A DNA stretch of 64,000 nt from Patescibacteria group bacterium (GTDB lineage: Bacteria > Patescibacteriota > UBA1384 > CAJBMM01). Numbering within the stretch: the first letter of the stretch is position 1; each line of letters begins with the position of its first letter. The stretch spans positions 6,155 to 70,154 of the forward strand of contig JBAZWC010000001.1 in NCBI GenBank assembly GCA_041660565.1, given 5' to 3'. The notes below the pieces were generated by a model. The model ran no database searches, had not been told where the DNA came from, and saw nothing but the letters and a program-made list of their open reading frames with translations. The position numbers and the translations under genes are program-made. Shown here piece by piece: positions 8,168-62,975 of this stretch.

Positions 8168-8334
8168 TGTCATTCCGGACATGATCCGGAATCTATGCGA
8201 TAACAACAATTCCATCATTAAAAATTTCAAATTTCAAATTTCAAATTCTTGTTTGAGATTTCTCCCTCCGGGCTTACGCCCTAAGAGGGCAGGAAGCCAC
8301 CCTCGACTCGAATGTCGAGTAGTCGAAATGACAA
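8168..8334. repeat. composite intergenic palindromic repeat
   Basis: Starts with TGTCATTCCGGAcatgaTCCGGAAT and contains an (aatttcaaat)n microsatellite. Positions 8254-8305 are the reverse complement of 3350-3400. Ends with GTCGAAATGACA. Confidence 0.6.
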
Positions 8335-8954: not shown

Positions 8955-9051
8955 TCGAGCTGATTAGGGGAGGAAATGGATAATATCATTGCATCTTATC
9001 CTGTTTTGTGGTAAAACAATTATGGAAATCACATACCTCTGGGAGGTGCGC

Positions 9052-9396: not shown

Positions 9397-9431
9397 GTCG
9401 GTATGTCGTTTCTGGTGAGGGAAGGGAGGTG

Positions 9432-9803: not shown

Positions 9804-9816
9804 TACCGGGGTTATT

Positions 9817-9858
9817 GGGCGGGAGCTGCATTGCGCAGCCCTCGCCCGTTTTCTTTTC
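9817..9858 (+). terminator. rho-independent terminator closing cassette B
   Basis: GGGCGGGAGCTGCattGCGCAGCCCTCGCCCG hairpin followed by ttttcttttc. Confidence 0.55.
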
Positions 9859-9867
9859 TATCATCTG

Positions 9868-9896
9868 TTGACAAATGGTCGCGACTTTGATAAATT
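9868..9896 (+). promoter_or_regulatory. sigma70-like promoter upstream of the 16S rRNA
   Basis: TTGACA, a 17-nt spacer, then TAAATT. Confidence 0.5.
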
Positions 9897-10112
9897 GAAT
9901 AAGTCCTTTGAATAAAAGAGATTTTTGAAACGTTAGCAATACGATGACGTATTGCTGATTGTTGCGAACTTTAATAATTTGATTTTTATCGTTTTACATT
10001 TTATTTGTGGTCAATTGACCATCGCAGGCTGACGAAAGTTGGTCGGCGAAAGATTTCCGAATAAGTTTTTTAATTTTAGAGCTAACAAGCATCTAATTCG
10101 ATCCTTAGGGAT

Positions 10113-11577
<1,465 letters not shown>

Positions 11578-12197: not shown

Positions 12198-12246
12198 TTA
12201 ATCCAAAAATCCCCAAATCAAGGGGATTTTTGTGTAATTGATAATC

Positions 12247-12334
12247 TGGTGGGCGTACATGGATTTGAACCATGGACCTCGTCATTATATTTCGTGCTTC
12301 GCGCGAAATTATTTACAACTGAGAAATCGCCTAT
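12247..12334 (-). pseudogene. tRNA-Ile 3'-half remnant
   Basis: Repeats the T-arm and acceptor 3' half of the adjacent tRNA-Ile (gacgaggtccatggttcaaatccatgtacgcccacc) but has no 5' half. Confidence 0.5.
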
Positions 12335-12335
12335 C

Positions 12336-12412
12336 TGGTGGGCGTACATGGATTTGAACCATGGACCTCGTCATTATCAGTGACGCGCTCTAACCAACTG
12401 AGCTATACGCCC
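12336..12412 (-). tRNA. tRNA-Ile (anticodon GAT)
   Basis: The reverse complement GGGCGTATAGCTCAGTTGGTTAGAGCGCGTCACTGATAATGACGAGGTCCATGGTTCAAATCCATGTACGCCCACCA folds as a cloverleaf with GAU in the loop. Confidence 0.9.
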
Positions 12413-14139: not shown

Positions 14140-14454
14140 TTAGAATTTATTCCATTTTGGGTTTTGGAGATAGAATAGGTCTTCTTTGACAATGAATTTG
14201 ACTCCTTCCTTCTCGAGGAGGATTTTTTGTTGCGTGGGAGTGACGCTTGGGTTAACAATCGAAATATATCCTTTAGCATTAATCACCCGCCACCAAGGGA
14301 TTTCAACTTCTGCGGGTAATCGTCTGAGTGCCCAGCCGACAACGCGAGCGCCGTTTTGTAGTCCCGCTGCTTTTGCTACATCACCGTAACTAGCCACAAT
14401 ACCGGAGGGTATTTTGGCGACGATTGAATATATTTTGGTATAAAGTTCAGACAT
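14140..14454 (-). CDS. alkyltransferase-like protein (MGMT DNA-binding domain, catalytic Cys replaced)
   Basis: YGDVA...ARVVGWAL...PWWRV in place of the PCHRV active site. The true start is ATG at 14452-14454. The upstream extension to 14712 in the six-frame ORF track is spurious because it runs over repeat and high-GC DNA. Confidence 0.7.
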   Translation of the reverse strand: MSELYTKIYSIVAKIPSGIVASYGDVAKAAGLQNGARVVGWALRRLPAEVEIPWWRVINAKGYISIVNPSVTPTQQKILLEKEGVKFIVKEDLFYLQNPKWNKF

Positions 14455-14460
14455 TATAAT

Positions 14461-14560
14461 CCTTGTAGGGGTGGGTCTCGACCCGCCCACGGGCGGACAT
14501 CCTCCTTCGCCAAGGCTACGGAACGACAAGTATGAGTCCGCCCCTACATTGCTCGGAGAA
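14461..14560. repeat. nested short palindromic repeats
   Basis: GTAGGGG...GGGCGGAC[cctccttcgccaaggctacgg...]GAGTCCGCCCCTAC. The same outer palindrome, without the insert, occurs at 58600-58640. Confidence 0.5.
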
Positions 14561-14612
14561 TATGATAGTGAAAAAGGAAGGCCCGCCTGCGAACGTCGCA
14601 GGCGGGGTCGAG

Positions 14613-14840
14613 CTACTGTGGGATCTCCTCTAGGGGAGAGGGGGTTCCTGCATGGAAGCAATCGGGCTGGTCGGCGTGATAGTGTCCGGTGAAACCAAGC
14701 GCGGAGCCCCATGCGAACTGAACGATTGGGGAGAAGTATCTGCCCCTTGGTTGTCTCGGGCTGTCATCTACCCGATCTAGTTGTGGAGGGGGCGATCCCT
14801 CCGGAATTGTGAGGACTAACTCCTGCCCATCAGGCATCAT
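14613..14840 (-). CDS. hypothetical small protein (high-GC cassette C), doubtful
   Basis: 75-aa ORF with SD ggagg upstream. High GC makes a spurious ORF quite possible. Confidence 0.25.
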   Translation of the reverse strand: MMPDGQELVLTIPEGSPPPQLDRVDDSPRQPRGRYFSPIVQFAWGSALGFTGHYHADQPDCFHAGTPSPLEEIPQ

Positions 14841-14964
14841 AAGTTCCTCCGAAAATGGCTTAGCATCTTGGCCTTAATTTAATCATATTCTTATGTGTCC
14901 AGGCGGCGCAACTTGTACAAATCCAGCGGCCTGTGTCATAATTAAGAGTGAGAAATGAGGGGAA

Positions 14965-16595: not shown

Positions 16596-17808
16596 GATTT
16601 AAAGTTGTTTGATGTACAAATAACCGTGAGGTTAAAACGTTTTACTTAAACAATCAGTTTAATTTCGGGATGGAATTAAAGATGTGAGCAATATTGTTTT
16701 GCTTGTGTTTTTGAACGCTTCCCGATGGGAAGTTTTTTGTTTCACTAGCCAGTGATGAGTCTCGGTCTTGAAACCGGGTCCACAAATTGCACGGGGACTG
16801 ATGTCCTGGCGAGTAAGTTCTTTTACAACTGAAAGGTGCATTAACGTGTTAAGTAATTTCACGGTTAATGCATTAAATTATGTATAACTTCCTTATTGAT
16901 TATACATAATATGATTCTTCCGATAATACTTAAGCCGCAAGGCTGTAGCAATTCGAAACCCCGCGAGGTTTTGTTTGCGCGAGCAAATGAAAATGAGCAA
17001 CGAGGTGAGAGCCGAGTTGATCCAAAACCGACACGAGGTTTCCATAAAAAATAAAATTGTTAGGATGAAACTTACCAAAGCCTGGTAAGGATCAGTCATA
17101 ACGTGTCAAGTAACCAATAATGAAAACAGATGACTAGAAGCACTTGTGTTTCAAATCTGATGTTTAGTTAAAGGTTTTGTTAGATCCGTTAATTAGAAGC
17201 AGAGACTCGAGACTGTAGAGGATTTTTCCTCTTAGGTTTCTTGTTTCTGGTCTCTAGTTAGCAGTCATGTAAAAAGTGACGAAAGCGCATGTGGAGGATG
17301 CCTTGACTGAAGATGCTGATGAAGGACGCACGAGGCGGCGATATGCTCCGGGAAGGTGCCAACGAACCAATGATCCGGAGATTTCCGAATGGGGTAACCC
17401 ATCCCGTTTTACGGGATACTCTCCTTTGAATATATAGAAGGAGTAGGAGGCAGCTCGGGAACTGAAACATCTTAGTACCGAGACGAAAAAAAAGTAATTA
17501 ACGATTCCGTGAGTAGTGGCGAGCGAAAGCGGATCAGCCTAAACCATCCGGAGGACTTAGAGCAGAATTATTTCTGTTTTATGTCTTCTGGATGGGGTTG
17601 CAGGGTGCGAACAGACCGTAAGGTCGAGTAGTTTGAAAAAATCAATTTATAGCAGAAGGTGCCTGGAAAGGCCCACCATAGAGGGTGATAGTCCCGTTAT
17701 GCGAAATATTTTGGTCTACTTGGTTTGCAAACCTAAGTACCACAGGGCACGAGAAACCCGGTGGGAATCTGGGACGGTCACGTCCTAAGGCTAAATACAT
17801 CTTCAGAT

Positions 17809-17848
<40 letters not shown>

Positions 17849-19207
17849 GCCGCATAGGCGAGTGAAATAGTACCTGAAACCACAATGCGTACAAGATGTC
17901 GGAGGGCTATGCCCCGTAAGGGGAATGCCTGACGGCGTGCCTTTTGTAGAATGAGCCAACGAGTTAGCTGTGTATGGCGAGGTTAAACTTTAAATTAGTG
18001 AAGCCGTAGTGAAAGCGAGGCCTAAATGGCCGACTAGTCGTACACACTAGACCCGAAACCAGGTGATCTATCCATGGTCAGGGTGAAGCCCCAGTAAAAA
18101 GGGGTGGAGGCCCGCACTCGGCAACGTTGTAAAGTTGCGGGATGAACTGTGGATAGCGCAAATATTGCAATCGAACCTGGAAATAGCTGGTTCTCCTCGA
18201 AATATATATAGGTATAGCCTACATTTAAAATACACAGAGGTAGAGCACTGGTAGGGCTACTCCGCCGTGAGGTGGGGAAACCCTGATAAACTCCGAATTC
18301 TGATGTATGTTCATGTAGAGTCAGACGGTGGGGGCTAAGCTTCATCGTCGAGAGGGAAACAACCCAGACCATTAGCTAAGGTCCCAAATTAATCGCTAAG
18401 TGGGGAAGGCAGTGATCGTCCCAAAACAACCAGGAAGTTGGCTCAGAAGCAGCCATCTTTTAAAGAGTGCGTAATAGCTCACTGGTCTAGTTAAGGATGG
18501 TTGCACCGAAAATGTAACGGGGCTCAAGCGATTAACCGAAGCTATGGACTTCAACGCAAGTTGGAGTGGTAGAGGAGCGTTCGTAACTGCTGTGAAGCCA
18601 TACCGTAAGGAGTGGTGGAGTGTTACGAAGTGAGAATGTTGGCATGAGTAACGAATTAGGCAGGCGAGAAACCTGCCCACCGCAAGAGCAAGGTTTCCTG
18701 GGCCACGATAATCGTCCCAGGGTTAGGCGGTCCTAAGTCGAGGCGCAAAGGCGTAGACGATGGACAGCTGGTTGATATTCCAGCCCTTGTTAAATTTTGA
18801 TTGGCGTGACGCCTCATAGGGGCTTAAATGATCGCATGGTTGAAAGTTTAAGTGAGTACGAGGACAAGAAAAGCGTCCAATCGCTAAGGTTTAACAATCC
18901 GTACCGCAAACCGACGCAGGTGCTCGAGTCGAGTAGACTCAGGTGATCGGAAGAACCCTCGTTAAGGAACTCGGCAAAATAGCGTCCGTAAGTTCGCAAT
19001 AAGGACTGTCCCGCGAAACTCGCAAGAGTGTAGAGGGATTACAACAAAAGAGATCAAGCGACTGTTTAGCAAAAACTTAGCTCCCTGCCAAAGCGAAAGC
19101 TGATGTATAGGGGGTGATGCCTGCCCAATGCCCGAAGGTCAAGAGGAGATTTAAGATTATATCAGGAATCGAATTTAAGCCCGGGTGAATGGCGGCCGTA
19201 ACTATAA

Positions 19208-19913
19208 ACCAAATTGTAGTTATAAAATTCGGCCAAATGCTGGAAAATCTGTCCTGAAAAAGGACTAGTATCCCGAACTAAAACCGTATAATATTAAATT
19301 ATGTACGATTTTGAAAATGTTACGGGTGCAGACAATCAGCAGGAAAGACTTGTCGTGAGTATTTCATCCGAAATTGGCTCGTTTCTCTCCGGTTTTGCCA
19401 TGGGAGAAGCCAGTTTCATGATCGTTTGTCGTTCAAGAAATGACTATAAAAGAAAATGGAAAGTGTCTGCAGCGTTTAATGTTTCTCAACACGATCGAGA
19501 GCCTCTCGATTTGTTTCATGAAACATTGGGTTGCGGAACGATTAGAAAAGCAGGAAATGATGGTTGGTATTTCGAAGTGAATAAATTATCAGATATCTGT
19601 AAAATAATTATTCCATTTTTTCTTAGGTTTCCTTTAGTGGGAATTAAGCAGAAAGATTTTGAATTATTCAAAGCTGCTGCTCAAATCCTGTCAAAGAGTG
19701 AAATTGACGATCAAGATTTTTCTAAAGTACTTTCACTGCGTGAGCAGATGAATAACGGAGGAAAAAGAAAATACTCAAAAACAAGAATCCTCAGAGACTA
19801 TACGCCGAACTCCCGCTTAGCGGGATGATGATATAGTCCGATCTTCATGGCGACATGAAGTATCAATCAGAAATGATTGGTCTTTCAAGAAATTGAATGT
19901 AACATAAATGAAC
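19208..19913 (+). mobile_element. group I intron 1 in the 23S (inserted after ...CGTAACTATAA, E. coli position about 1917)
   Basis: The exon sequence is interrupted exactly between ACTATAA and CGGTCC. It contains an ORF. Confidence 0.7.
19301..19828 (+). CDS. LAGLIDADG homing endonuclease (encoded in intron 1)
   Basis: LAGLIDADG-type motif LSGFAMGEASF; about 175 aa, typical for single-motif homing endonucleases. Confidence 0.75.
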   Translation: MYDFENVTGADNQQERLVVSISSEIGSFLSGFAMGEASFMIVCRSRNDYKRKWKVSAAFNVSQHDREPLDLFHETLGCGTIRKAGNDGWYFEVNKLSDICKIIIPFFLRFPLVGIKQKDFELFKAAAQILSKSEIDDQDFSKVLSLREQMNNGGKRKYSKTRILRDYTPNSRLAG

Positions 19914-19944
19914 GGTCCTATGGTAGCGAAATTCCTTGTCGGGT

Positions 19945-20630
19945 GAGAGGAAACAAGCCCGACGCAAAAAAGTTGGCTTATAACGGTGAAGCCCTATTGT
20001 AATTATGGTATATGTTCGGTTAGAATGAATGTATAAATGCAAGGGTAATACCGTGGGAAGTCTTAGTGACCCCGTAACGACTGAGAGCGTAAGCTCGAGA
20101 ATCCACGCAAGTGGGTTAACACGCCAGCCTTTAAAGGATGAAGAAATTAAATTTGCTTCATATCTCTCTGGGTATGTTGATGGAGAAGGATGTTTTTCCG
20201 TATCCCTCAACCCTAGAAAGAAAATGAATAATACTTGGGAAGTCAGACCGAGTTTTTCGGTCAGTCAGAATGCTGAACGTTCAGCCTTTTTATTCAAAAT
20301 GAAAGAATATTTTTCGTGTGGTACTATCCGGCCTGATCGGTCTGATAATACCTTGAAATATGAAATTCGATCATTAGATAAATTAATTGAACGAATAATC
20401 CCGCATTTTGAAAATTTTCCATTACGTTCCGAGAAGCAAAAATCATTTCTAATATTCACGCATATTTGTCAGATGTTGAAATCAAAAAAGCACTTAACTT
20501 CAGACGGAATTTCTGAAATTATTGCTTTAGCCCCGACAATCAACAATGGCAAGCGAAGATATTATCCATTAAAGAAGATATAGTCTGCGCCACTAGTAAT
20601 AGTGGATTGAACAAACGTTCAAAGAACGCG
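19945..20630 (+). mobile_element. group I intron 2 in the 23S (inserted after CCTTGTCGGGT, E. coli position about 1931)
   Basis: The exon resumes with AAGTTCCGACCCGCACGAATGG at 20631. Confidence 0.7.
20029..20583 (+). CDS. LAGLIDADG homing endonuclease (encoded in intron 2); start uncertain
   Basis: Motif YLSGYVDGEGCF. Confidence 0.75.
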   Translation: MYKCKGNTVGSLSDPVTTESVSSRIHASGLTRQPLKDEEIKFASYLSGYVDGEGCFSVSLNPRKKMNNTWEVRPSFSVSQNAERSAFLFKMKEYFSCGTIRPDRSDNTLKYEIRSLDKLIERIIPHFENFPLRSEKQKSFLIFTHICQMLKSKKHLTSDGISEIIALAPTINNGKRRYYPLKKI

Positions 20631-21103
20631 AAGTTCCGACCCGCACGAATGGCATAACGGTCTTGATCACTGTCTCAACGAGGGATCCGGTGAAATTACA
20701 ATCTCGGTAAAGATGCCGAGTACCCGCATCAAGACGGAAAGACCCCGTGGAGCTTTACTACATCCTGGCATTGATATACGGATATCTTCACGTAGCATAA
20801 GTGGGAGCCTTTGATAACATTCTCGCGGGAGTGTTTGAGGCGACAGTGAAATACCACCTCTAGCTATTTGTGTATCTAACCCCTCACCCTGAATCGGGTG
20901 GGAGAGACAGTGTTTGGTGGGTAGTTTAACTGGGGCGGTTTCCTCCCAAATGGTAACGGAGGAGTACAAAGGTCGGCTAGCTCCGGATGGAAATCGGAGT
21001 GATAGCGCAAAAGCATATGCCGGCTTAACTGTGAGACCTACAAGTCGAACAGATGGGAAACCAGGTTTTAGTGAACTGCTGCACTTGAGTGATTTAGGCA
21101 GCA

Positions 21104-21143
<40 letters not shown>

Positions 21144-21168
21144 GCATCCAAGAGATCACTTCGACGAT

Positions 21169-21206
<38 letters not shown>

Positions 21207-21242
21207 AGGTGAAGTCGCTTCCAAGGGTTTGGCTGTTCGCCA

Positions 21243-21294
<52 letters not shown>

Positions 21295-21643
21295 AATCTG
21301 ATGTGGGCGTGGAATTTTGAGTGGGGTTGCGCGTAGTACGAGAGGACCCGCGCGAACGAACCTCTGGTGTGCCAGTTGTTCTACCAAGGGCAGTGCTGGG
21401 TAGCTATGTTCGGTTATGGATAACCGCTGAAAGCATATAAGCGGGAAGCCGGCCACAAGATAAGAATTCATAGATCCCCTGTAGACCACAGGGTTGATAG
21501 ACGCTAGGTCGAAGCTCTGTAAGGAGTTAAGCCAAGGCGCACTAACGGATCATTTCATTTTTTATAACAACCCTCCTTCGCATAAAGCTACGGAGGGCAA
21601 GCGCTTGACACGTTATGACTGGTCTTTTAAAAAAAGTCCATTG

Positions 21644-29274: not shown

Positions 29275-29286
29275 CATCACGACCTG

Positions 29287-29367
29287 TCATTCCGGACTAG
29301 ATCCGGAGTCCAGGCAATAATAGATTTTTTATATAGATTCCGGGTCGAGCCCGGAATGACAAATTAA
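29287..29367. repeat. palindromic repeat, family 2 (TGTCATTCCGGA...TCCGGGAATGACA)
   Basis: cctgtcattccggactagatccgg...ttatatagattccgggtcgagcccggaatgacaa. Confidence 0.6.
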
Positions 29368-31261: not shown

Positions 31262-31573
31262 ATTCGAAGCACTAAATCCGAAATCCGAAAAAAATTAAAA
31301 AAGCTCAAATTCAAATTTTTTAAAAAATAAAAAAATTGTAATTAACTTTTTGCCACCATTGACAAAATACTCTCGATTTTGATACTATACCAAAGTATGA
31401 TTAAACACATTCAACCAATTAATAAGTGCTTTACGCTCTATCGCTTAGAAGGGCACGGGCTTAATTTGTAAGATGACAATAAATCAGAATTAACAAATAA
31501 GAGCTCCTCTAAGGCCCAAACCACCTTGTAGGAGCTCTTTACAGTTTATTCTGGAAAGACCTTAACAACTCAC

Positions 31574-31647
31574 GCCTCGTTAGCTCAGATGGCAGAGCGG
31601 CCTGGTTAGCACCAGGACGGCCGGCGGTTCGAGTCCGCCCCGGGGCA
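31574..31647 (+). tRNA. tRNA-like gene with an aberrant anticodon arm (possible pseudo-tRNA / integration target)
   Basis: Canonical D-arm (TAGCTCAGATGGCAGAGC), T-arm (GGCGGTTCGAGTCCGCC) and a 6/7-bp acceptor. The anticodon region CCTGG-TTAGCA-CCAGG has only a 6-nt loop, so no anticodon can be assigned. No encoded CCA. Confidence 0.45.
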
Positions 31648-31695
31648 TGTATTCTACGGCAAGACGTCCACAACGCGCATCAAGGAGGACAGCAA

Positions 31696-31914
31696 GTGAG
31701 GCGAAAGCCAGTGGACCAACTGATGGTCCGAGATGTCTTGTCACCAGGCGAGGCATTGAAGATCATGCGTGATGCCGCCGAAGCGGCTAAGGGCAATGTC
31801 CTGCAACGTCAGGACGACGTCACGAAATCCGGACAGGCCCATGTAATGCGGGCCACTGCCGGAACGACTGTTACGCAGTACCGCAATGAGGAGGTCAAGC
31901 GCTGTGACAAGTGA
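31696..31914 (+). CDS. hypothetical small protein (high-GC cassette E, gene 1)
   Basis: GTG start after SD aaggagg; 72 aa. Confidence 0.35.
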   Translation: MRRKPVDQLMVRDVLSPGEALKIMRDAAEAAKGNVLQRQDDVTKSGQAHVMRATAGTTVTQYRNEEVKRCDK

Positions 31915-32032
31915 CTTGGAGGCAATTCGTGAAGCGGCTGGACTGCCAATTCCGATTGCAGATGCCACCAGTGGTTTCATCACCAACTCGGACACGACAC
32001 AAGGAAGTGGAAGGGCTGGTGGCAATGCCTAA
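31904..32032 (+). CDS. hypothetical 42-aa protein (cassette E, gene 2; frame chosen over the 134-aa track ORF)
   Basis: The frame-2 ORF VTSDLEAIREAAGLPIPIADATSG... is protein-like. The overlapping 31911-32315 frame gives an R/S/P-rich N-terminus typical of off-frame high-GC translation. Confidence 0.25.
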   Translation: MTSDLEAIREAAGLPIPIADATSGFITNSDTTQGSGRAGGNA

Positions 32033-32315
32033 GCAACGGACACACTCCACTGCAGCGGGGCGGCGCGTCACTGATGAAGATGCGCGTGATGGCGATATAA
32101 TGCAACTGGCCAAGGCTGTGGTTGATGGGGCACGAATAACTGAGTTCCAAGCTGCCAATGCATTGTGCCATCGTCTTCGGGTCGCCATTGATAGCGAGTC
32201 GCCCAAAAGCAGATCTCTCGTGACCCTTCGTCTGGCAATACGGACTCTCGAGGCACAATTCTCGACCATGGTTGGGTCTGTCACCTTGTCCAGTGCCGTA
32301 GTCCGGGCGCGGTAA
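32025..32315 (+). CDS. hypothetical protein (cassette E, gene 3)
   Basis: ATG at 32025 overlaps the gene 2 stop (ATGCCTAA); 96 aa. Confidence 0.3.
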   Translation: MPKQRTHSTAAGRRVTDEDARDGDIMQLAKAVVDGARITEFQAANALCHRLRVAIDSESPKSRSLVTLRLAIRTLEAQFSTMVGSVTLSSAVVRAR

Positions 32316-32553
32316 CAGGCGCAATACTCGCTCCATTGGGAGCAGACCGATAGTCCGGGCGGGAGAACATCCCCGCTCGGGCTTCTTTTTATCCATTAAT
32401 CGTAGGGGCGGTCTCATACCTGCCCCTCGTAGCCTTCTTGACCTTCCGAAGCTTTAGCGCAGGAGGTGGCGTAGTGGGGTGTCCGCCCGTTTAATTATAT
32501 AGATTCCGGGTCAAGCCCGGAATGACAAGTGAATAATGTGCTAAAGTAATCTT

Positions 32554-33261: not shown

Positions 33262-33450
33262 AAAAATAATTTCAAATTTCAAATTAAAAATTTCAAATTG
33301 GGGGGATTCTTCTATGTAGATTTCTCTCTCCGAGCCGTAGGACTACGAGCCGGAGGCCAACATAGTCGATTTGACAATCTCCTAGGGTCGAAATGACATA
33401 TTTGGTAATATCGTCTAGAATCCCGGCCGATATTGTGCTAGGGTGGGCGT

Positions 33451-34554
33451 ATGCATAACGACGTTTGGGCTGAGGTCAATTTAGAAAATATCAAATATAA
33501 TTTTAATGTACTAAAAAAATCGTTAATGCCGGAAACCGGAATAATCGCCGTAGTTAAATCTAATGCCTATGGGCACGGTCTAGTTGAAACATCGCGTGCA
33601 CTATCAGATGTTGGTGCGGATATGTTGGCAGTAACCAGTATTAAAGAAGCGCTAGATTTGCGCCAGAATAACATTACCACCGCCATCATCAACCTCTCAT
33701 ACACCGCCCCCGAAGACGTAGAGCAATGTATCACCAAAAAAATCACCGCCACCATTTATGATGCCGGGCAAGCGGAAAAGTGTAATCAAATTGCGTCCGA
33801 TTTAAGAAAGCCGCTTCGGGTGCACCTGAAAATAGACACGGGGATGTCGCGATTGGGGATTTTGGCAGAAGAGGTTGAGGCTTTAGTGCCCAAAATTATG
33901 CGTTATCCGTATTTGCGAGTAGATGGGTTGTATTCGCATTTTGCCGACGAAACCGATGCGCAGATGGTACAAAATCAATACCAGAATATGCAGATGGCAT
34001 TGTTTTCGTTGCAAAAACAAGGGTTGGTAGTGCCGGCGGTACACATGGCCAAGTCTGGTGTTGTGTTTAAATCGAATCAGTATCACTTTGACGCGGTGCG
34101 TGCGGGGATGGCGCTTTACGGATATGAAGACTATGGCAAAAATTTGCGCCCCAGCATGACTCTTAAAACAGTGCTCGCGCAGGTAAAGAAAATCAAAGCT
34201 GGTGCCAGTGTTGGGTATATGCAGACGTTTACCACGTCCAAAGACCTCTTAATTGGCGTTTTGCCAATTGGTTACGCGCATGGGATTGACCGCGGGTTAT
34301 CAAATGTTGGCCATGTTTTGGTGGATGGTTGGAAATGTCCGATCATTGGGCGGGTATGTATGGCGCAAACGATTGTAGATTTGTCGCCGGTGCTAATGAC
34401 ATCTAGAATAAAAATGGGTGATGAAGTGGTGGTGCTGGGTAAACAGGGCAAGCAAGAAATCACCGCGCGCCAGATTGCGGATTGGCTTGGTACTAACACC
34501 TACGAGGTAGTCACCCGCATTCCCGAATCCGTCCCCAGGATTTATATGAATTGA
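33451..34554 (+). CDS. alr: alanine racemase
   Basis: PLP-binding signature AVVKSNAYGHG. Confidence 0.85.
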   Translation: MHNDVWAEVNLENIKYNFNVLKKSLMPETGIIAVVKSNAYGHGLVETSRALSDVGADMLAVTSIKEALDLRQNNITTAIINLSYTAPEDVEQCITKKITATIYDAGQAEKCNQIASDLRKPLRVHLKIDTGMSRLGILAEEVEALVPKIMRYPYLRVDGLYSHFADETDAQMVQNQYQNMQMALFSLQKQGLVVPAVHMAKSGVVFKSNQYHFDAVRAGMALYGYEDYGKNLRPSMTLKTVLAQVKKIKAGASVGYMQTFTTSKDLLIGVLPIGYAHGIDRGLSNVGHVLVDGWKCPIIGRVCMAQTIVDLSPVLMTSRIKMGDEVVVLGKQGKQEITARQIADWLGTNTYEVVTRIPESVPRIYMN

Positions 34555-34667
34555 ATCCTTGTCATTCCGGACTTGATTGTTCCGTTAGGAACTAATGACC
34601 CCGACCGGAAAGGGCGTGAGGAATATCCGGAATCTATATAATATAAATTTCCTTAAGGAGAGAAACA

Positions 34668-35294
34668 GTGAATCTATCACCAGAAGAAATTAAGACAATC
34701 AAAACGTATGATGACCATTATGATGCCATTTATCAACAGCGTAATACTGATGGATATTGGAAAGCAGAAGCGGACGAACTAAAAAAACATCTGCCGAGTG
34801 GCAAAATCATTGAATTTGGTTGCGGTGGTGGGCGTGACGTTCGAATGTTATTAGATTTGGGATACGAATATATTGGCACCGATATCTCCAAGGTAGCGGT
34901 GGAAAAATGCAAAGCAAAATTTCCAAATCAAGAATTTATAAGCACAGATTTATACTCGCTTCCATTTGAAGATGGTAGCTTTGACGGATTCTGGACCATG
35001 GTAACATTGATGCACATCTATCCACGGCAAAAAATTAATCTGGCGTTGGCCGAAATAAAACGCGTTCTTCATCCTGAAGCATATGGTTGTTTATCAATTA
35101 AAAACGGAGAAGGTGAGACATTGCATCCGGATGTTTTGAAGCAAGGCGGTGAAAGGCCACGAATGTTTACGCTATGGACCGAAAAACAATTCGCAGACGT
35201 TTTAGCTAAAAACGGGTTTGAAGTGCTAAAATCATATGGAAAAACAGCAAATTCGTGGTCAGATTGGTTAGTTTATTTTGTCAAAGTGAGATAA
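34668..35294 (+). CDS. class I SAM-dependent methyltransferase
   Basis: Motif I IIEFGCGGGRD followed by an acidic loop DIS. Confidence 0.7.
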   Translation: MNLSPEEIKTIKTYDDHYDAIYQQRNTDGYWKAEADELKKHLPSGKIIEFGCGGGRDVRMLLDLGYEYIGTDISKVAVEKCKAKFPNQEFISTDLYSLPFEDGSFDGFWTMVTLMHIYPRQKINLALAEIKRVLHPEAYGCLSIKNGEGETLHPDVLKQGGERPRMFTLWTEKQFADVLAKNGFEVLKSYGKTANSWSDWLVYFVKVR

Positions 35295-35306
35295 TTTGGA
35301 GGAAAT

Positions 35307-35612
35307 ATGCAAACATATAACAAATTGGTGCGGGATAGAATTCCCGAGATCATCAAATCCAAAGGTGGGGAGTTTAAGACACGTATTTTGTCTGATGACG
35401 AATACAAAGTTGAACTAGACAAAAAATTATCCGAAGAAATAAAAGAATATCAAGCAGATCAAAATATGGATGAATTAGCTGATCTGCTAGAAATAATCTA
35501 TGCCATTGCCGAAAATAATGGGGTAAGTAAGGAAGAGCTCGAAAAAATCCGCGTAGATAAGGCGGCCAAACGAGGTGGATTCAAAGACAAAATCTTTCTC
35601 ATCGAATCGTAA
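35307..35612 (+). CDS. MazG-like house-cleaning NTP pyrophosphohydrolase (small all-alpha)
   Basis: KLVRDRIPEII...EELADLLEIIYAIA...RGGF pattern. Confidence 0.6.
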   Translation: MQTYNKLVRDRIPEIIKSKGGEFKTRILSDDEYKVELDKKLSEEIKEYQADQNMDELADLLEIIYAIAENNGVSKEELEKIRVDKAAKRGGFKDKIFLIES

Positions 35613-35704
35613 GGGATCAAGTCAAATACTACGACCTGTGTAGGGGCGATTCTCGTTGGCCGTCGGACATCCGATGCGTCAGATAGGACATCGCCCATTT
35701 ATGG

Positions 35705-35733
35705 TTGACTACATGTACTGTAAAGCGTATATT
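35705..35733 (+). promoter_or_regulatory. sigma70-like promoter of cassette D gene 1
   Basis: TTGACT, a 17-nt spacer, then TATATT. The same architecture and leader recur at 36581-36609. Confidence 0.5.
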
Positions 35734-35788
35734 TGTGTTGCCTGCAAAACTGCGCAGAGTACCGATACAGAACGGTGGTGAGACAAAC

Positions 35789-36481
35789 GTGGTAGATTTG
35801 GACGGATTTCCGGCCAGCATCGCCAATGGTGAGATTCGGGTAGAGGTGTACGATAACCTGAAGTACCCTGAGTTCGGTCGGTTGTACACCGAGCGCGTTG
35901 TTACTATCCCCTCTGACGATCTGCACGCATGGTCTTTGCTGGCTGATGGTGCCCAACTGTTGGTGACTTACCGTCATCTGTATCCCACTGGTGGAGGCGT
36001 GGCCAGCACTGAGGTTGGAGAGTACCGGGTTCCCGAGGGCACGAAGGAGGTATTCGTGTCGTACGCCTTTGGGATGGATGACTTGATACCGTTCCATGGG
36101 TCTGGCGATGACAGAGCATCTGAGCTACATGCTTCGAAGCAGGGCGTGTTCCCTTTCCGGCAAGGTTTGGGGCGTGCCCACAACTTGTACCACCAGCCTC
36201 TTGGGCTCGACTGGGGCCAACTGTGTAAGGCAGCAGATGTGTTGGCTATTCATGGTCGGTTAGTCGGGCGAAAGGGCATCCCTGCTGACTTGTCCGAAGG
36301 TAAAGTGCTTAAGAGCGGATGGGCAGCCGGCGAAGGTGGTGCCGAGGTGTATCGTGGTTACCACGATGTCGTAAGCGGTCGCCTGGTCTATCCCAACAAC
36401 CTACCAGGCCGATCCCCGTATCTGGTCCTCAAGTTTGACCAGCCGCACATCATCTGGTGCCCGGAGATCAACTGGAAGTAG
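35789..36481 (+). CDS. hypothetical protein, high-GC cassette D paralog 1
   Basis: GTG after SD ggtggtgag. About 230 aa and paralogous to the next gene (LLVTYRHLYPTGGGVA / LLVTYDRPVGVGAA; PLGLDWGQL / PLYLGWKEF). Confidence 0.45.
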   Translation: MVDLDGFPASIANGEIRVEVYDNLKYPEFGRLYTERVVTIPSDDLHAWSLLADGAQLLVTYRHLYPTGGGVASTEVGEYRVPEGTKEVFVSYAFGMDDLIPFHGSGDDRASELHASKQGVFPFRQGLGRAHNLYHQPLGLDWGQLCKAADVLAIHGRLVGRKGIPADLSEGKVLKSGWAAGEGGAEVYRGYHDVVSGRLVYPNNLPGRSPYLVLKFDQPHIIWCPEINWK

Positions 36482-36580
36482 CGCCGAGTCTTGTCGTGTG
36501 GGCTGTGCCAACTGGCGCAGCCCACGTTTCTTTCGTAGACCACGCTTTAGCGTAGGAGGTAGCTAAGGAGGGCGCCCGCC

Positions 36581-36609
36581 CGCTTGAGATTGACTAGATG
36601 TACCGAAAA
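36581..36609 (+). promoter_or_regulatory. sigma70-like promoter of cassette D gene 2
   Basis: TTGACT, a 17-nt spacer, then TATTTT, followed by a leader gtgttgcctgcaaaactgcgcagagtacc identical to that of gene 1. Confidence 0.5.
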
Positions 36610-36662
36610 GCGTATTTTGGTGTTGCCTGCAAAACTGCGCAGAGTACCTAAACAGAGAGAAG

Positions 36663-37328
36663 GTGAAAATCGTGGCAGTTTCACCTAAAAGACCAACCGA
36701 GGTTGGTCGGATCAGAGTGTTGTGGAAGGACAACCTGGAGTGGCCAAACATGGATGATCTTCTTGGGGCTAACGTGGTCTCTCTGCCTACCAATGAAGAC
36801 CGTTGGGCCATGCTTGGGGGCGAGGACAGGCAATTGTTGGTCACTTACGACCGCCCTGTGGGTGTTGGAGCGGCGAAAGTGGACATGAAGACCAGCTTCA
36901 TCGTTGGGGACGATGGTGGCATCCCGTTCTGTTTCTCGGCCACAGGGCAGGCAGATCAGCTGTTCGAGACGCAGCTAAGCGTTTTCGAAGTGCCGCGGCT
37001 AATGAGCCAGATTACGGAAGAGATGGATTTGGTGAGTAACCGGCGCCATGACGTCTATTACGCGCCACTCTATCTCGGGTGGAAGGAATTCCTTCGTGTA
37101 GTCGCTGCCCTGAACATCCTAGGAACCTCTTGTTTGCCAGACGCCAATCCAACCAATGTTCCTCGAGGTGAAGTTGTGCTTCGGAAGTGGGTGGCAGGCG
37201 ATAACACATTTGTGGTCAAGGGGAATGGAATCATGATTGCATCTGGGACCCTTCACCATCCTCAAGCTGGCCCATTGTCTCTTGGTGATCCTCACCTCGT
37301 TCAGGCGATCACATTCCCGACCCTCTAG
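36663..37328 (+). CDS. hypothetical protein, high-GC cassette D paralog 2
   Basis: GTG start (an alternative GTG lies at 36672); about 220 aa; paralog of 35789-36481. Confidence 0.45.
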   Translation: MKIVAVSPKRPTEVGRIRVLWKDNLEWPNMDDLLGANVVSLPTNEDRWAMLGGEDRQLLVTYDRPVGVGAAKVDMKTSFIVGDDGGIPFCFSATGQADQLFETQLSVFEVPRLMSQITEEMDLVSNRRHDVYYAPLYLGWKEFLRVVAALNILGTSCLPDANPTNVPRGEVVLRKWVAGDNTFVVKGNGIMIASGTLHHPQAGPLSLGDPHLVQAITFPTL

Positions 37329-37355
37329 CCCCAACAACAATATCGCCAACACTCA

Positions 37356-37391
37356 CGGGCAGGCCAACTGGTCTGCCCGTTTCAATATTTT
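37356..37391 (+). terminator. rho-independent terminator closing cassette D
   Basis: CGGGCAGGCCaactGGTCTGCCCG followed by tttcaatatttt. Confidence 0.55.
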
Positions 37392-37429
37392 GAATAGCCG
37401 AATGAGCAAAAGTTTGCTATAATTCGAAT

Positions 37430-38743
37430 ATGAGTTCAACGTCTTTAGACCAAATTGTTAATCTAGCCAAGCGGCGGGGATTTGTTTTCCCATCGTCCGA
37501 GATTTATGGTGGGCTAGCTAGCACCTGGGATTACGGCCCGTACGGTGTACTGCTCAAGAATAACGTCAAAGCGGCCTGGTGGAAGGCGATGGTGCTAATG
37601 CGCGATGATATTGTGGGGCTAGACGCCGCTATTTTGATGCATCCGCGCACTTGGGAAGCCAGCGGGCATACTGATAGCTTTTCTGATCCGCTAGTAGAAT
37701 GTCGTCAGTGTCACAATCGATTCAGGCTAGATGAGTTGCAAGATCTACAAAAATCCGACAAAGACAAATTACAATGTCCGGTTTGTGGCACCAAAGATAA
37801 CTTTACCGAGCCTAAAAACTTTAATCTGTTAATGAAAACTTTTCTGGGTACAACTGAAGATGCAAAATCGGCCGTGTACCTGCGTGGAGAAACTTGCCAG
37901 GGTATTTACGTTAACTTCAAAAACGTCCTAGCTACATCGCGCCAAAAAATCCCGTTTGGGATTGCCCAAATTGGTAAAGCGTTTAGGAACGAAATCACCC
38001 CCGGAAACTTTACTTTTAGAATGCGCGAGTTTGAACAGATGGAGATGCAGTTTTTTGTTAAACCAGATGCCGCTGCGGTCTATTACGATGAGTGGAAATC
38101 GCGTCGGTTAGACTGGTACAAATCGCTTGGGTTTGAAATGACGCGAGTCAGGTTCAAAGACCACGACAAGCTGGCGCACTACGCCAAAGCGGCAGTGGAC
38201 ATTGAGTACGACACGCCGTGGGGTTGGAAAGAGGTAGAGGGAATCCACAATCGTGGTGATTGGGATCTATCACGTCACTCCGAGTTTTCGGGTAAAGATC
38301 TATCTTATTTTGATGAAGAAAGCGGCGATAAATTTATGCCATACATTGTAGAAACGTCGGGTGGTGCTGACAGGATTAGTTTGATGGCTCTAATAGATGC
38401 GTATAACGAGGAAGAAACCGATGGCGAAACTCGTGTGGTATTAAAATTACATAAAGATTTGGCACCAATTAAAGTGGCGGTAATGCCGTTATTAAAGAAT
38501 AAGCCGGAGCTGGTGGAAGTTGCTACCAAATTATTCCATGAACTTAAAGCGGCCGGCATTATGGCCGAATACGACGAATCGGGTTCAATTGGGCGCCGTT
38601 ACCGCCGCCAAGACGAGATTGGTACACCAATTTGCGTAACCATCGATTTTGACACACTCGAAAATAAAACTGTCACCATCCGCGACCGCGATACAATGAA
38701 GCAGGAACGCGTTGGGCTAGACAAAGTACTAAAACTGACATAG
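37430..38743 (+). CDS. glyQS: glycine--tRNA ligase (alpha2 dimeric type)
   Basis: N-terminal [25 protein letters not shown] signature. TATAAT sits 6 nt before the ATG. Confidence 0.9.
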
Positions 38744-38751
38744 CGCACTAT

Positions 38752-38893
38752 GTCATCCCGGACTTGATTGTTCCGTTAGGAACTAACGACTCCAACCGCA
38801 AGGTTGCGAGGAGTATCCGGGATCCAGACTATAAAAGACGAGAATGAACTCTGTTTTTTTATATAGATTCCGGCTCGGGGGCCGGAATGACAC
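38752..38893. repeat. composite palindromic repeats, family 2 (two units)
   Basis: tgtcatcccggacttgattgttccgttaggaactaa... is homologous to 34561-34640. Also ...tatagattccggctcgggggccggaatgaca. Confidence 0.55.
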
Positions 38894-43005: not shown

Positions 43006-43037
43006 AGTATAGAATATTGACGATGGATTTCTTTGTT

Positions 43038-43191
43038 TGTCATTTCGACCCGAGGAGTGTGTCAACACGACTACGATGGAGAAATCTAAGAAAAAATCTC
43101 ATCCGCAATTTTAAATTGTAAATTGAAAATTTCAAATTCTTTTGTAAGATCTCTCCACCCTCTCGACAACGCTCGAGGAGTCGAGATGACA
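43038..43191. repeat. MITE-like repeat, family 1, short copy
   Basis: TGTCATTTCGAC ... GTCGAGATGACAA termini with an aatttcaaat core. Confidence 0.6.
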
Positions 43192-43235
43192 AGTCGTGGA
43201 GTATAACAACATTCAAAATTAAAATTGAGGCAATA

Positions 43236-49139: not shown

Positions 49140-49310
49140 TTCTTTCTTGTTCGAACGCAGCGAGAACTCTGTTGGGGGTGCATGACAGTTCTCGTCGCAG
49201 TGCTCCTCGAACAAGAACAGACTGGATTCTGGACCAGTCTCGACGAGGTTGAGCAGAGGTGGATCAAGCCCAGAATGGCAAAGAATAAGCCCGGGGACGT
49301 CGTGTGACAT
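49140..49310. repeat. palindromic repeat, family 4 (TTCTTGTTCGAAcg...cGAACAAGAA) plus a family 2-like tail
   Basis: TTCTTGTTCGAACGCAGCGAGAACTC...AGTTCTCGTCG...CTCGAACAAGAA. Homologs occur at 58420-58500 and in part at 57395-57430 and 58565-58600. Confidence 0.55.
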
Positions 49311-49319
49311 CCTCGGGCA

Positions 49320-49844
49320 TTAGGCATCCTCCTGTTGGCTGGCACGGAGCAGTACCTCTTCGTCAGGGCGATCAGATGGCCGCAGCAGCCTGGCGGTTTT
49401 GGCAGCCTCGTCCACGGCCAGTTTCCTCGCCAACTCAGCGAGCCTTCTTTCCTCCGCCTGCGCTTTTCGGATGACCTCGGCTTGTTCTACAACGGTAACC
49501 TCGTGGGCGATCTCCTGCTGTTGACGAGTGCCCCACTGTACGGCTGCCTGGCTGGGAGTAACAATCAGGTACTTCCAGAACGCTTTGGCAACCGCCCCGA
49601 TCGAGGGTGAATGTATCCAGCAACATATCAGGAGCAATGTCCACTCCCAAAGTGATCTGTGACTGTGATGCGTGACAAGATCGAATATCGTGACAAATCC
49701 GATGGCCATCCCGAATGCCCATATACCTACCGCGAAACCGCAAGTGCTCTCACCCACCCAATTTGGGACATACATAACGGCACGCCCAAATCGGCGAAGC
49801 TTTCGGCCAAGGTATCGGCCGATTGCTTTCAGCCAAATGTGCAT
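49320..49844 (-). CDS. hypothetical membrane protein (high-GC cassette F)
   Basis: ATG at 49842-49844 after SD aggagg and a TGGACA-17-TAAAAT promoter. Two TM helices then a charged helical tail. Confidence 0.4.
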   Translation of the reverse strand: MHIWLKAIGRYLGRKLRRFGRAVMYVPNWVGESTCGFAVGIWAFGMAIGFVTIFDLVTHHSHRSLWEWTLLLICCWIHSPSIGAVAKAFWKYLIVTPSQAAVQWGTRQQQEIAHEVTVVEQAEVIRKAQAEERRLAELARKLAVDEAAKTARLLRPSDRPDEEVLLRASQQEDA

Positions 49845-51083: not shown

Positions 51084-51338
51084 TGTCATTTCGACTCCTC
51101 GAGCATTGTCTCGAGGGTGGAGAAATCTCAAAGAAAGAAAATTTTTAATTTTTAATTTTTAATTTCAAATGAAAGGTAGCCAATTTTTAAATGACTAAAT
51201 AAGGAACCTTTTAAAAATTTAAACATTCGGCACTTATTCATTTAAAATTTAGCCTTTAAAATTTAAAATTTGGATAGGATTTTTTCTTAGATTTCTCCAA
51301 CATAGTCGAGCTGACGCTCTTCTAGGGTCGAAATGACA
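51084..51338. repeat. MITE-like repeat, family 1, full-length copy (about 255 bp)
   Basis: Left TIR TGTCATTTCGACTCCTCGAG...CTCGAGGGTGGAGAAATCT and right ...AGATTTCTCC...GGGTCGAAATGACA, with an AT-rich core shared with 3420-3550. Confidence 0.65.
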
Positions 51339-51365
51339 TATTTTGAAGTTGATTAGAGGAAATTT

Positions 51366-55128: not shown

Positions 55129-55146
55129 TAATGAAAACATCGCGAC

Positions 55147-55401
55147 TGTCATTTCGACTCGGGGAGAGCGTCGGCTCGACCACGCTTCAAGAAATCTAAG
55201 AAAGAATCTCATCCATAATTATAAATTTTAAAGGCTAAATTTTTAATGAATAAGTACCGAATGATTAAATTTTAAATGGTTCCTTATTTAGTCATTTAAA
55301 ATTGGCTTCCTTTCATTTGAAATTGAAAATTGAAAATTTAAAATTCTCATATTGTAGATTTGCACACGCCCCAATTGGAACATCGAGGAGTCGAGATGAC
55401 A
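55147..55401. repeat. MITE-like repeat, family 1, full-length copy in the opposite orientation to 51084-51338
   Basis: TGTCATTTCGAC...GTCGAGATGACAA, with a core that is the reverse complement of 51140-51270. Confidence 0.65.
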
Positions 55402-57357: not shown

Positions 57358-57507
57358 ACTGGATTCCCGCCTTCGCGGGAATGACAACTCGAAGATAGTT
57401 CTCGGTTATGCCTCGAACAAGAAAACCGTAGTCCAAGCTTTCGTGACCTCCGTAGCTCGGAGAGCGAAGGGGGTAGTTTGTTTTCCTCATAACACACTAA
57501 AGCGTGG
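57357..57507. repeat. composite repeat (family 2 unit, family 4 tail and family 3 unit); left flank of cassette G
   Basis: ctggattcccgccttcgcgggaatgacaac...agttctcggt...cgaacaagaaaaccg. Then ccgtagtccaagctttcgtgacctccgtagctcggagagcgaaggggg, which is homologous to 41130-41225. Confidence 0.55.
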
Positions 57508-57523
57508 TCTACGAACGCCAAAC

Positions 57524-57552
57524 TTGACTAAATGTGTAATATATGCTAATAT
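57524..57552 (+). promoter_or_regulatory. sigma70-like promoter of cassette G
   Basis: TTGACTaaATGT, a 17-nt spacer, then TAATAT. The -35 context TTGACTAnATGT is shared with the cassette D promoters. Confidence 0.5.
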
Positions 57553-57626
57553 AGTTGCTAGAACCTGAACATTGGCCCAAACCGTTGGGCCATCATCGCC
57601 GGCGGGCTTACGCAAGGGAGAATTCG

Positions 57627-58241
57627 ATGGCTGACTCTGAGCTGATGCTCGATGTCGGGCAGGCGAATGAGCTCAAGTTGGCTTTCCGCAGATGCGGATG
57701 GACCAACGAAGAGATCAAGAAGCTTAGTGAGGGCGACACTCTGGTCGGGGTGCGGCAGGTGATTCGTGGCGAGGCCACGATTCAGGCAGTCGAAGCGTCG
57801 AAGTTGCTTGAAGACGTCGGCACCTACGGCGTCGATGTGGTCACGGAATTCGACGCCGAGACGGAGTTGGTCGAGGGAAAGCACGGCATCAGTTGGGCCA
57901 GCGAAGAGTTCAAGAAATTCATCGCTGGCAAGATCGAGACCAATGTTCCGGCGGCGCGGCTCCGCGTCAGCAAACTGCTTAGGCAGTCGGTGGATGGCCC
58001 GATCATCGCCGAACTGGGTGGTGAGGCGACGGTAGAGACGTTCTTGGCATGGCTGTCGCAGCTGTTGGGGAAGCTTCCCCACGGCCGCTATCTTTTCTAT
58101 GTCAAGGACGCCCAAGGAAGGCTTTGGGTGGTTCACTGCTTATGGTACTCCAGCTACAGCGGCTGGTGCCTGAACGTCGACTCGGTTGCGAAACTGTTCC
58201 AGTGGACTGTCGGCAACCAGTTCCTCTCTCGCGATTCTTGA
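57627..58241 (+). CDS. hypothetical protein (high-GC cassette G)
   Basis: ATG after SD aaggga. About 205 aa and roughly 60% GC. No recognisable domain. Confidence 0.45.
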   Translation: MADSELMLDVGQANELKLAFRRCGWTNEEIKKLSEGDTLVGVRQVIRGEATIQAVEASKLLEDVGTYGVDVVTEFDAETELVEGKHGISWASEEFKKFIAGKIETNVPAARLRVSKLLRQSVDGPIIAELGGEATVETFLAWLSQLLGKLPHGRYLFYVKDAQGRLWVVHCLWYSSYSGWCLNVDSVAKLFQWTVGNQFLSRDS

Positions 58242-58288
58242 ACCTCTGACCCTTGGGTCTTAGTGCCACTCTGGTGCTCTGACCCTTT

Positions 58289-58324
58289 GGCCCTCTGACA
58301 CTTTGTCGGAGGGCCATTGTTTGT
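58289..58324 (+). terminator. rho-independent terminator closing cassette G
   Basis: GGCCCTCtgacactttgtcgGAGGGCC followed by attgtttgt. Confidence 0.5.
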
Positions 58325-58419
58325 ATATAATACAACAGGAAACTGTGGGATGGTGGCTACGGCTTTCGTCCACGTTTCAGATTGTTGTTTACTCCAGAAT
58401 TGCTTTATATATCACCTTC

Positions 58420-58640
58420 GAGGTGCAAGATTGATTTTCTTGTTCGAACGGAGTGAGAACTCAATCAGATTGGGTAGTTCTCGTCGTAACCCTCCTCGAA
58501 CAAGAATATTGGAAGTCTTCTATATACTGGATTCCGGATCTAGTCCGGAATGACAACAAAAACGGGTAGTTCTCAGTCGCGACTTCGAACAAGAAAACCG
58601 GTGGGCGGACATATGAGTCCGCCCCTACGGTGGTCGTGAT
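58420..58640. repeat. composite repeat (family 4 palindrome, family 2 unit, family 4 tail and a GGGCGGAC palindrome); right flank of cassette G
   Basis: TTCTTGTTCGAACGGAGTGAGAACTC...CTCGAACAAGAA; ctggattccggatctagtccggaatgacaac...agttctcagtcgcgacttcgaacaagaaaaccg; ggtgggcggacatatgagtccgcccctacgg. Confidence 0.55.
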
Positions 58641-62835: not shown

Positions 62836-62850
62836 AACCCAACGCCCCCT

Positions 62851-62975
62851 TGTCATTTCGACTCGGGGAGAGTGTCAACTCGACCACGGTGGAGAAATCT
62901 TGAGAAAGAATCCATTCCAGTTGTTCTTAGAGATTTCTCCAACCGTTCGTGGAAGCTCACGGGGTCGAAATGACT
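62851..62975. repeat. MITE-like repeat, family 1, short copy
   Basis: TGTCATTTCGACTCGGGGAG...GGAGAAATCT...AGATTTCTCC...GGGTCGAAATGAC. The right TIR contains the argS ATG. Confidence 0.6.

Follow-up and report, generated by a model that had tools for sequence, protein, structure and literature searches.

The PeSLs (promoter-early stem-loops) of T4-type phages are strong sigma-70-like promoters combined with terminator stem-loops, and mediate modular shuffling (Arbiol et al. 2010, PMC2839356). Their many copies lie in the hyperplastic regions of phage genomes, next to unrelated genes, and undergo recombination (PMC2839356; Comeau et al. 2014, PMC4122927). The locus described here is found in a 64,000-nucleotide (nt) stretch of a Patescibacteria group bacterium (assembly GCA_041660565.1, contig JBAZWC010000001.1, positions 6,155 to 70,154), hereafter the window, and recalls both the PeSLs and the co-regulated tandem paralogs that are a general bacterial pattern. 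It consists of two adjacent genes, A and B, each preceded by a nearly identical block of promoter and leader sequence, and lies among housekeeping-type genes on the chromosome. Patescibacteria (candidate phyla radiation, CPR) are uncultured and have reduced genomes, and to our knowledge very little is known about their control of transcription. The segment carrying the two genes is referred to as island D. Its two genes are old paralogs that may still be governed by one shared regulatory module.

Diverged paralogs and their conserved promoter-leader block

The two genes are homologous along their whole length. BLASTP aligns the encoded proteins at 27% identity across 221 columns (E=5e-19), and a MAFFT alignment gives 29%. 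This agrees with the initial annotation, made from the sequence alone, which had described adjacent open reading frames of about 220–230 amino acids with roughly 30% identity. The GTG starts of both genes are backed by aligning the N termini of the two proteins with that of an outside homolog, P0005 (MVDLDGFP / MVNIDGFP), and a Shine-Dalgarno sequence followed by GTG, as previously noted, can be read directly in both copies (GGTGGTGAG for A and AAGGTGA for B). The public gene calls differ. In the NCBI annotation, where the source contig is 516 kb long, gene A is a 79-amino acid fragment (WC773_00255, MFA6081835.1) and gene B is a hypothetical protein of 192 amino acids with an internal ATG start (WC773_00260, MFA6081836.1), while the JGI call for gene A has 248 amino acids. 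An independently assembled Logan contig (L001) carries the same gene A call and a 218-amino acid call at the gene B position. On the basis of the P0005 alignment, lengths of 230 (A) and 218 (B) amino acids are favoured over the public calls. The public annotation truncates both genes and thereby conceals their paralogy.

Identity between the two genes is 44% at the first codon position, 51% at the second and 35% at the third, where 27% is expected at random. This order (second above first above third) indicates that A and B are real coding sequences under purifying selection. At fourfold-degenerate sites of identical residues, 10 of 30 third positions match, compared to the same random expectation of 27%. 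Synonymous sites between A and B are, as judged from these counts, saturated, and because of this saturation the duplication is ancient. The paralogs go back to an old event in which the entire module was duplicated in tandem. The earlier proposal that a complete promoter-leader-gene module was duplicated holds, and extends to the terminator. The claim that the pair was recently amplified does not, as both the codon-position identities and the fourfold-degenerate sites point to an old event.

The sequence directly 5' of the two genes is far better conserved. A repeat search pairs positions 35692–35781 with 36577–36666 (90 nt, 82% identity), and blastn aligns a 67-nt block (35705–35771 and 36590–36656) at 89.6% identity (E=1e-20), slightly longer than the element of about 60 nt originally described ahead of each reading frame. 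The mismatches between the copies fall at offsets 7, 14, 16, 26, 29, 59 and 61. The block covers the -35 element, the spacer, the -10 element and approximately the first 30 transcribed bases, counted from a start predicted from the -10 element, and the leader is ~48 nt long in both units. A promoter scan recovered the consensus -35 and -10 elements where the initial annotation had placed them (TTGACT-17-TATATT and TTGACT-17-TATTTT). The longest identical run is a 29-mer, GTGTTGCCTGCAAAACTGCGCAGAGTACC, which starts at 35735 and 36620 and occurs at these positions only; 0 of 100 shuffles matched. Relative to the predicted start, this core extends from about -5 to +24. The 8-bp palindrome CTGCGCAG noticed earlier in the leader is present in both block copies and at no other site in the window.

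The element is rare. There are no copies in the 64 kb beyond these two, and a 21-mer from the core has 0 matches in GTDB species genomes and 0 in IMG/VR. Its only match in JGI metagenomes falls within an unrelated coding region and is due to chance. The two reading frames do align, and their leader is not part of a genome-wide repeat, at least across the window and the public collections searched.

The identity of 60 of 67 non-coding positions ahead of saturated genes is the anomaly of this locus, and is not a sign of recency. Compared with neutral sites, the block evolves slower by an order of magnitude or more, unless it has been homogenised. Because the duplication is old, either selection or gene conversion acting locally has preserved the block. 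The favoured explanation is that a full transcription unit, from hairpin to terminator, was duplicated in tandem long ago, and that the 67-nt block has since been kept as a shared cis-regulatory module, with the same strong sigma-70-type promoter driving both paralogs. A single trans-acting factor would control both genes through an operator-like site lying over the start (-5 to +24; CTGC-N8-GCAG / CTGCGCAG). An operator that overlaps the transcription start is the classical position for bacterial repressors. Proteins A and B would be made together under the same conditions and could perhaps act jointly, as is common among diverged paralogs, for instance in a heteromer. Co-regulation of the pair, as initially proposed, is the natural reading given promoters that are nearly identical, and co-expression is a prediction of that reading. 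Taken whole, the explanation of A and B as co-regulated paralogs with a shared promoter and an operator-like site has, in our estimate, about an even chance of being correct.

Concerted evolution could produce a similar contrast, if a short tract of gene conversion or unequal exchange had recently copied one block onto the other. The likeness would then imply no operator, and no common regulation other than that which follows from the two genes having one promoter in common. The copies are 885 bp apart in direct orientation, an arrangement that favours conversion, and the edges of the block are fairly sharp, with mismatches spread no differently from random (P=0.12). The spacer between the -35 and -10 elements, which is rarely sequence-constrained in sigma-70 promoters, is also largely kept. 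However, the coding DNA that flanks the block is no more alike than expected at random, leaving the block as the sole homology from which conversion could begin, and its 7 differences indicate that any conversion was not very recent. Identity outside the block also declines gradually, with 8 of 13 positions matching upstream and the Shine-Dalgarno and start region partly alike downstream, which fits graded constraint. The terminators, furthermore, appear to be old homologs with paired changes in their stems, and not converted copies. Concerted evolution seems rather unlikely to be the explanation.

A function of the leader at the RNA level was also considered. Here both mRNAs would carry, in their first ~24 nt, a binding site through which an RNA-binding protein, an RNase or a small RNA controls translation or mRNA stability. 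The 29-nt identical run does fall mostly within the predicted transcribed leader, and three of four leader folds contain a small predicted hairpin, CUGC...GCAG, which is absent from the 59-nt fold of copy 2. However, shuffled sequences fold as well as the leader does (z from +0.23 to -1.65), and Rfam returns no relevant match up to E=10. The leader is short, its identical copies offer no covariation, and the non-transcribed part of the promoter is conserved almost equally. The RNA structure suggested by the initial annotation is thus not borne out. With no RNA structure to be seen in the leader, an operator acting on the DNA is the more plausible guess, and an RNA-level element is improbable.

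Several observations weigh against a conserved operator and a common regulator. The block exists in only two copies, from which selection and gene conversion are not separable. A 29-nt identical run is not significant when 7 mismatches are placed at random in 67 nt (P=0.12), so there is no statistical proof that the region of the start site is more constrained than the promoter. The CTGC-N8-GCAG sequence occurs at no other site in the window, so that a regulon is not demonstrable, and the palindrome is only 8 bp long. The promoter and leader of the outside homolog P0005 differ from those of A and B, and the element is therefore not kept family-wide. Any regulator of the two genes is putative. 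In addition, the structural models of the two proteins are poor, and a fold search with them gave no significant match.

A number of other readings of the block were rejected. A short open reading frame beginning at an ATG in the promoter spacer (MYCKAYICVACKTAQSTDTERW in copy 1, MYRKAYFGVACKTAQST in copy 2) was examined as a leader peptide. Its ATG lies upstream of the -10 element and has no Shine-Dalgarno site, its stops differ between the copies, and all differences in the shared part are non-synonymous. The leader does not represent a known cis-regulatory RNA, having neither a covariance-model match nor a stable conserved structure. By eye, the core lacks both the invariant GG of the -24 element expected of a sigma-54 promoter and the R'/R'' boxes of an integron attC site. 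An interspersed repeat, similar to the repetitive extragenic palindromic (REP) or miniature inverted-repeat transposable element (MITE) types, is likewise rejected, as there are only two copies of the block in the window and the other repeat families present are unrelated in sequence.

Hairpins, terminators and the repeated unit

The block is one part of a larger repeated unit, whose features are collected in Table 1. The hairpin 5' of promoter A is probably a terminator or insulator behind the preceding MazG-like gene. The CGCCC of its 3' arm aligns with a CGCCC located 5' of promoter B, which is also directly preceded by a hairpin. The intrinsic terminators that follow genes A and B have the apex GCCAACTGG in common, and their stems differ through paired changes; from their sequences they look like old homologs. 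The repeated unit, as read from the DNA, is an insulated single-gene module consisting of hairpin, promoter, leader, gene and terminator.

Table 1. Features of island D, in window coordinates
Feature	Position	Strand	Description
Long imperfect hairpin	35644–35696	+	Immediately 5' of promoter A; minimum free energy fold pairs GGGGCGAUUCUC... with ...GACAUCGCCC; z=-2.0
Promoter A	35705–35733	+	-35 TTGACT 35705–35710, 17-nt spacer, -10 TATATT 35728–35733; 10/12 consensus matches
Promoter-leader block, copy 1	35705–35771	+	60/67 identical to copy 2
29-nt core, copy 1	35735–35763	+	Exact identity; CTGC-N8-GCAG 35742–35757, CTGCGCAG palindrome 35750–35757; candidate operator
Shine-Dalgarno region, gene A	35774–35782	+	GGTGGTGAG; direct sequence reading; 6 nt ahead of GTG 35789
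Gene A	35789–36481	+	GTG start 35789, stop at 36481, 230 amino acids; acidic soluble protein, orphan family
Intrinsic terminator A	36496–36537	+	Stem 36496–36527, 14-bp, CCAACTGG apex, then TTTCTTTC; -28.4 kcal/mol, z=-4.2
Promoter B	36590–36618	+	-35 TTGACT, 17-nt spacer, -10 TATTTT; 9/12 consensus matches
Promoter-leader block, copy 2	36590–36656	+	Found by blastn and repeat search
29-nt core, copy 2	36620–36648	+	Exact identity; CTGC-N8-GCAG 36627–36642
Shine-Dalgarno region, gene B	36660–36666	+	AAGGTGA; direct sequence reading; 5 nt ahead of GTG 36672
Gene B	36672–37328	+	GTG start 36672, stop at 37328, 218 amino acids; gene A paralog
Intrinsic terminator B	37356–37391	+	Stem 37356–37379, CGGGCAGGCC-AACT-GGTCTGCCCG, then TTTCAATATTTT; -24.3 kcal/mol, z=-5.9

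With a stem-loop before each promoter and after each gene, this composite architecture fits the definition of a PeSL (PMC2839356). The hairpin and promoter could accordingly be a mobile regulatory cassette, a portable recombination substrate that shuffles or captures orphan genes, and A and B would have come to lie behind copies of one such element. The orphan genes A and B do lie in a segment of 54% GC (35620–37390) within a window of 44.7% GC. However, the 64 kb contain only two copies, and the viral, genome and metagenome collections contain none. Since both the genes and the terminators are homologous, a single duplication of the module is simpler than two independent captures. The locus is also part of a bacterial chromosome amid housekeeping genes, and not of a phage. 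Capture by a mobile cassette is considered very unlikely.

The protein family and its surroundings

Among about 15 billion sequences, proteins A and B have a single further relative and form with it an orphan family of three. A word-indexed search of 5.8 billion clusters with gene A returned gene A itself only. When 1.84 billion representatives were searched in full with an HMMER profile, this recovered A, B and one true relative, P0005, together with two repeat proteins matched over short stretches, which were rejected as relatives. A profile built from all three members found no additional relatives. P0005 is 229 amino acids long and is matched across the N-terminal 134 residues (E=8.8e-5), sharing the length and the N-terminal motifs of A and B. 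It is single-copy, is found on short contigs (40% GC) from a lake metagenome, and has a distinct promoter and leader of its own. At its locus (L083 1–4663, JGI Ga0172368_10025410) the genes form single-gene units, each with a consensus promoter, and the neighbours encode a Cys-rich 128-amino acid protein, a 230-amino acid unknown, an AP_endonuc_2 protein and a Macro-domain protein. The contig contains neither a second paralog nor the shared leader.

Both proteins are soluble and acidic (isoelectric point 5.2–5.8) and have masses of about 24–25 kDa. No signal peptide or transmembrane segment is present, the maximum Kyte-Doolittle values over 19 residues being 0.68 and 1.25. Searches of Pfam, PHROGs, PADLOC and PDB sequences with A and B gave no matches, and island D has none in phage collections, plasmid collections or viral contigs. 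AlphaFold2 models based on the three-sequence alignment have low overall confidence (pLDDT 51 for A and 47 for B), and both agree on a beta-rich N-terminal domain of ~105 residues at moderate confidence. Neither homology nor fold assigns a function to A or B.

The initial annotation had offered a toxin/antidote couple, or a receptor-binding or immunity pair, as examples of what A and B might be. More broadly, they could form part of a conflict system, as toxin and antitoxin, tandem immunity proteins of a polymorphic-toxin system, or diversified surface or receptor-binding proteins, and tandem diverged paralogs that are fast-evolving orphans are typical of immunity-gene arrays. A toxin and its antidote are not indicated, as A and B are homologs with separate promoters and terminators, and PADLOC, Pfam and PHROG are all null. 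A receptor-binding or immunity pair fares no better given proteins with neither a signal peptide nor a transmembrane segment, no significant fold match, and no toxin gene nearby, the neighbours being a methyltransferase, a MazG-like protein and glycyl-tRNA synthetase. A role in conflict thus seems extremely unlikely.

On its 5' side, island D is flanked by genes for alanine racemase, an S-adenosylmethionine (SAM) methyltransferase and a 101-amino acid MazG-like protein, and on its 3' side by those for glycyl-tRNA synthetase, mraZ and rsmH. GC content at third codon positions is 59–63% in the island compared to 33–50% in the adjoining genes. The Logan contig L001 is 100% identical to window positions 34566–38787, which indicates that the junctions are not an artefact of the metagenome-assembled genome. 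Copies of an intergenic repeat, at 34560–34610 and 38751–38801, coincide with the ends of this contig. A search with the neighbouring glycyl-tRNA synthetase found no close relative, the best being 61% identical. The SAM methyltransferase (34668–35291) has a PADLOC match to mad2 of the mads_2 system (E=1.3e-13). This match is probably not meaningful, as only the generic methyltransferase domain is covered.

A link to the promoter of a second locus in the window, cassette G, had also been proposed. A 12-nt -35 context, TTGACTAnATGT, is indeed shared, but alignment shows no likeness beyond it. The cassette G protein (57627–58239) comes from another family. It has 190 relatives (E<=0.001), and those with names are nearly all Patescibacteria. 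Many of these relatives match only a ~50-residue segment at 60–73% identity, with the remainder diverged. This pattern suggests that the segment may be a conserved motif or domain of an unnamed, mostly Patescibacteria family.

Cassette G falls in one of several further short GC-rich segments (52–65% GC), which are located at 9001–9900, 14301–14900, 31501–32500, 49201–49800 and 57501–58400. No Pfam domains were found in the open reading frames tested from four of these segments (14301–14900 left out). Given the 190 relatives of the cassette G protein, a foreign or orphan nature does not apply to every segment. The left edge of the segment at 31501–32500 is marked by a tRNA-like gene (31574–31647) that scores above the Rfam tRNA threshold (36.5 bits), and to which ARAGORN does not assign an anticodon ('ag', tRNA-???). 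This gene may represent an integration site, or may have an unusual anticodon loop.

Several families of interspersed repeats are found between genes in both orientations. One type starts with hairpin units, TGTCATTTCGAC or TGTCATTCCGGA, and another is made up of AAATTT-rich tracts. Repeat sites are located at 3316–3556, 8159–8333, 29276–29367, 33357–33403, 34551–34610, 38751–38801, 43037–43212, 51084–51343, 55146–55361, 58506–58561 and 62850–62974. These families resemble REP or MITE elements.

The 16S gene (10114–11574) lies 5.7 kb upstream of the 23S gene. The interval carries a tRNA-Ala gene on each strand, and tRNA-Ile on the minus strand, opposite to the + strand copy of tRNA-Ala, so that the rRNA genes do not form a standard operon. 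The 23S gene (17271–21565) spans 4,295 nt compared to a 2,925-nt model, and so carries inserted sequence of about 1.4 kb in all (introns or intervening sequences). Such insertions are typical of CPR bacteria. A 58-nt direct repeat (12231–12288 and 12320–12377, 90% identity) covers the low-coordinate end of tRNA-Ile (12336–12412, minus strand), and indicates a partial tRNA duplication beside the intact gene.

Comparison with known systems

The block is a compact candidate for a functional promoter and operator in the CPR, with 90% identity ahead of genes that are saturated. The locus also defines a three-member orphan family and corrects the public annotation. The finding is local, with one lineage, two copies of the block and no link to any pathway, defence system or mobile element already described. 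It is real but modest and lineage-restricted, and its general significance is limited unless further copies or a regulator emerge. There is a small chance of something more far-reaching. The block could be the module recognised by an undescribed Patescibacteria-specific regulator, which would act at an operator over the transcription start and control a heteromer of two paralogs whose fold and function are absent from all databases. Alternatively, the hairpin and promoter could be the first cellular counterpart of the PeSLs, shuffling orphan genes.

Several described arrangements share features with island D. The core CTGC-N8-GCAG (CTG-N10-CAG) over the predicted start resembles the LexA (SOS) operator, CTGT-N8-ACAG, a likeness that serves as a lead only. 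Unlike that operator, the core has C/G instead of T/A at positions 4 and 13, its centre is not AT-alternating, and no site of its type beyond the two block copies is present in the window. Island D resembles type II toxin-antitoxin systems in having a neighbouring pair of small-to-medium genes with no assigned function, in a segment whose composition stands apart. However, toxin and antitoxin are non-homologous and share one autoregulated promoter, whereas A and B are homologous along their whole length, each has its own promoter, and a terminator with a 14-bp stem stands between them. The locus is not a pair of integron gene cassettes, which are promoterless reading frames with attC arrayed beside intI, as each gene has a consensus promoter and a Rho-independent terminator. 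No integrase is among the listed neighbours of island D, and no integrase search of the whole window was made. An array of immunity genes against polymorphic toxins was rejected as well; tandem paralogs are present, but the genes upstream encode the SAM methyltransferase and MazG-like protein and those downstream glycyl-tRNA synthetase.

There is a likeness in architecture with the PeSLs. In both, a terminator stem-loop and a strong sigma-70-like promoter form a composite beside small genes of unknown function, and the repeated regulatory sequence is conserved far better than the genes it flanks. Island D differs in that it has two copies, both ahead of paralogs, on a bacterial chromosome, and no phage or viral relatives. 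No recombination products are evident from the one other assembly of the locus, which is 100% identical.

Island D also follows the pattern of co-regulated tandem paralogs, in that a whole unit was duplicated in tandem and the promoter and start-site segment were kept as the coding sequences diverged. Here, however, the contrast is unusually extreme (90% over 67 nt against saturated synonymous sites), and the proteins are orphans, without a wider regulon seen in the window. The arrangement itself is already known. What this locus adds is an orphan CPR family with an unusually well-kept promoter and leader.

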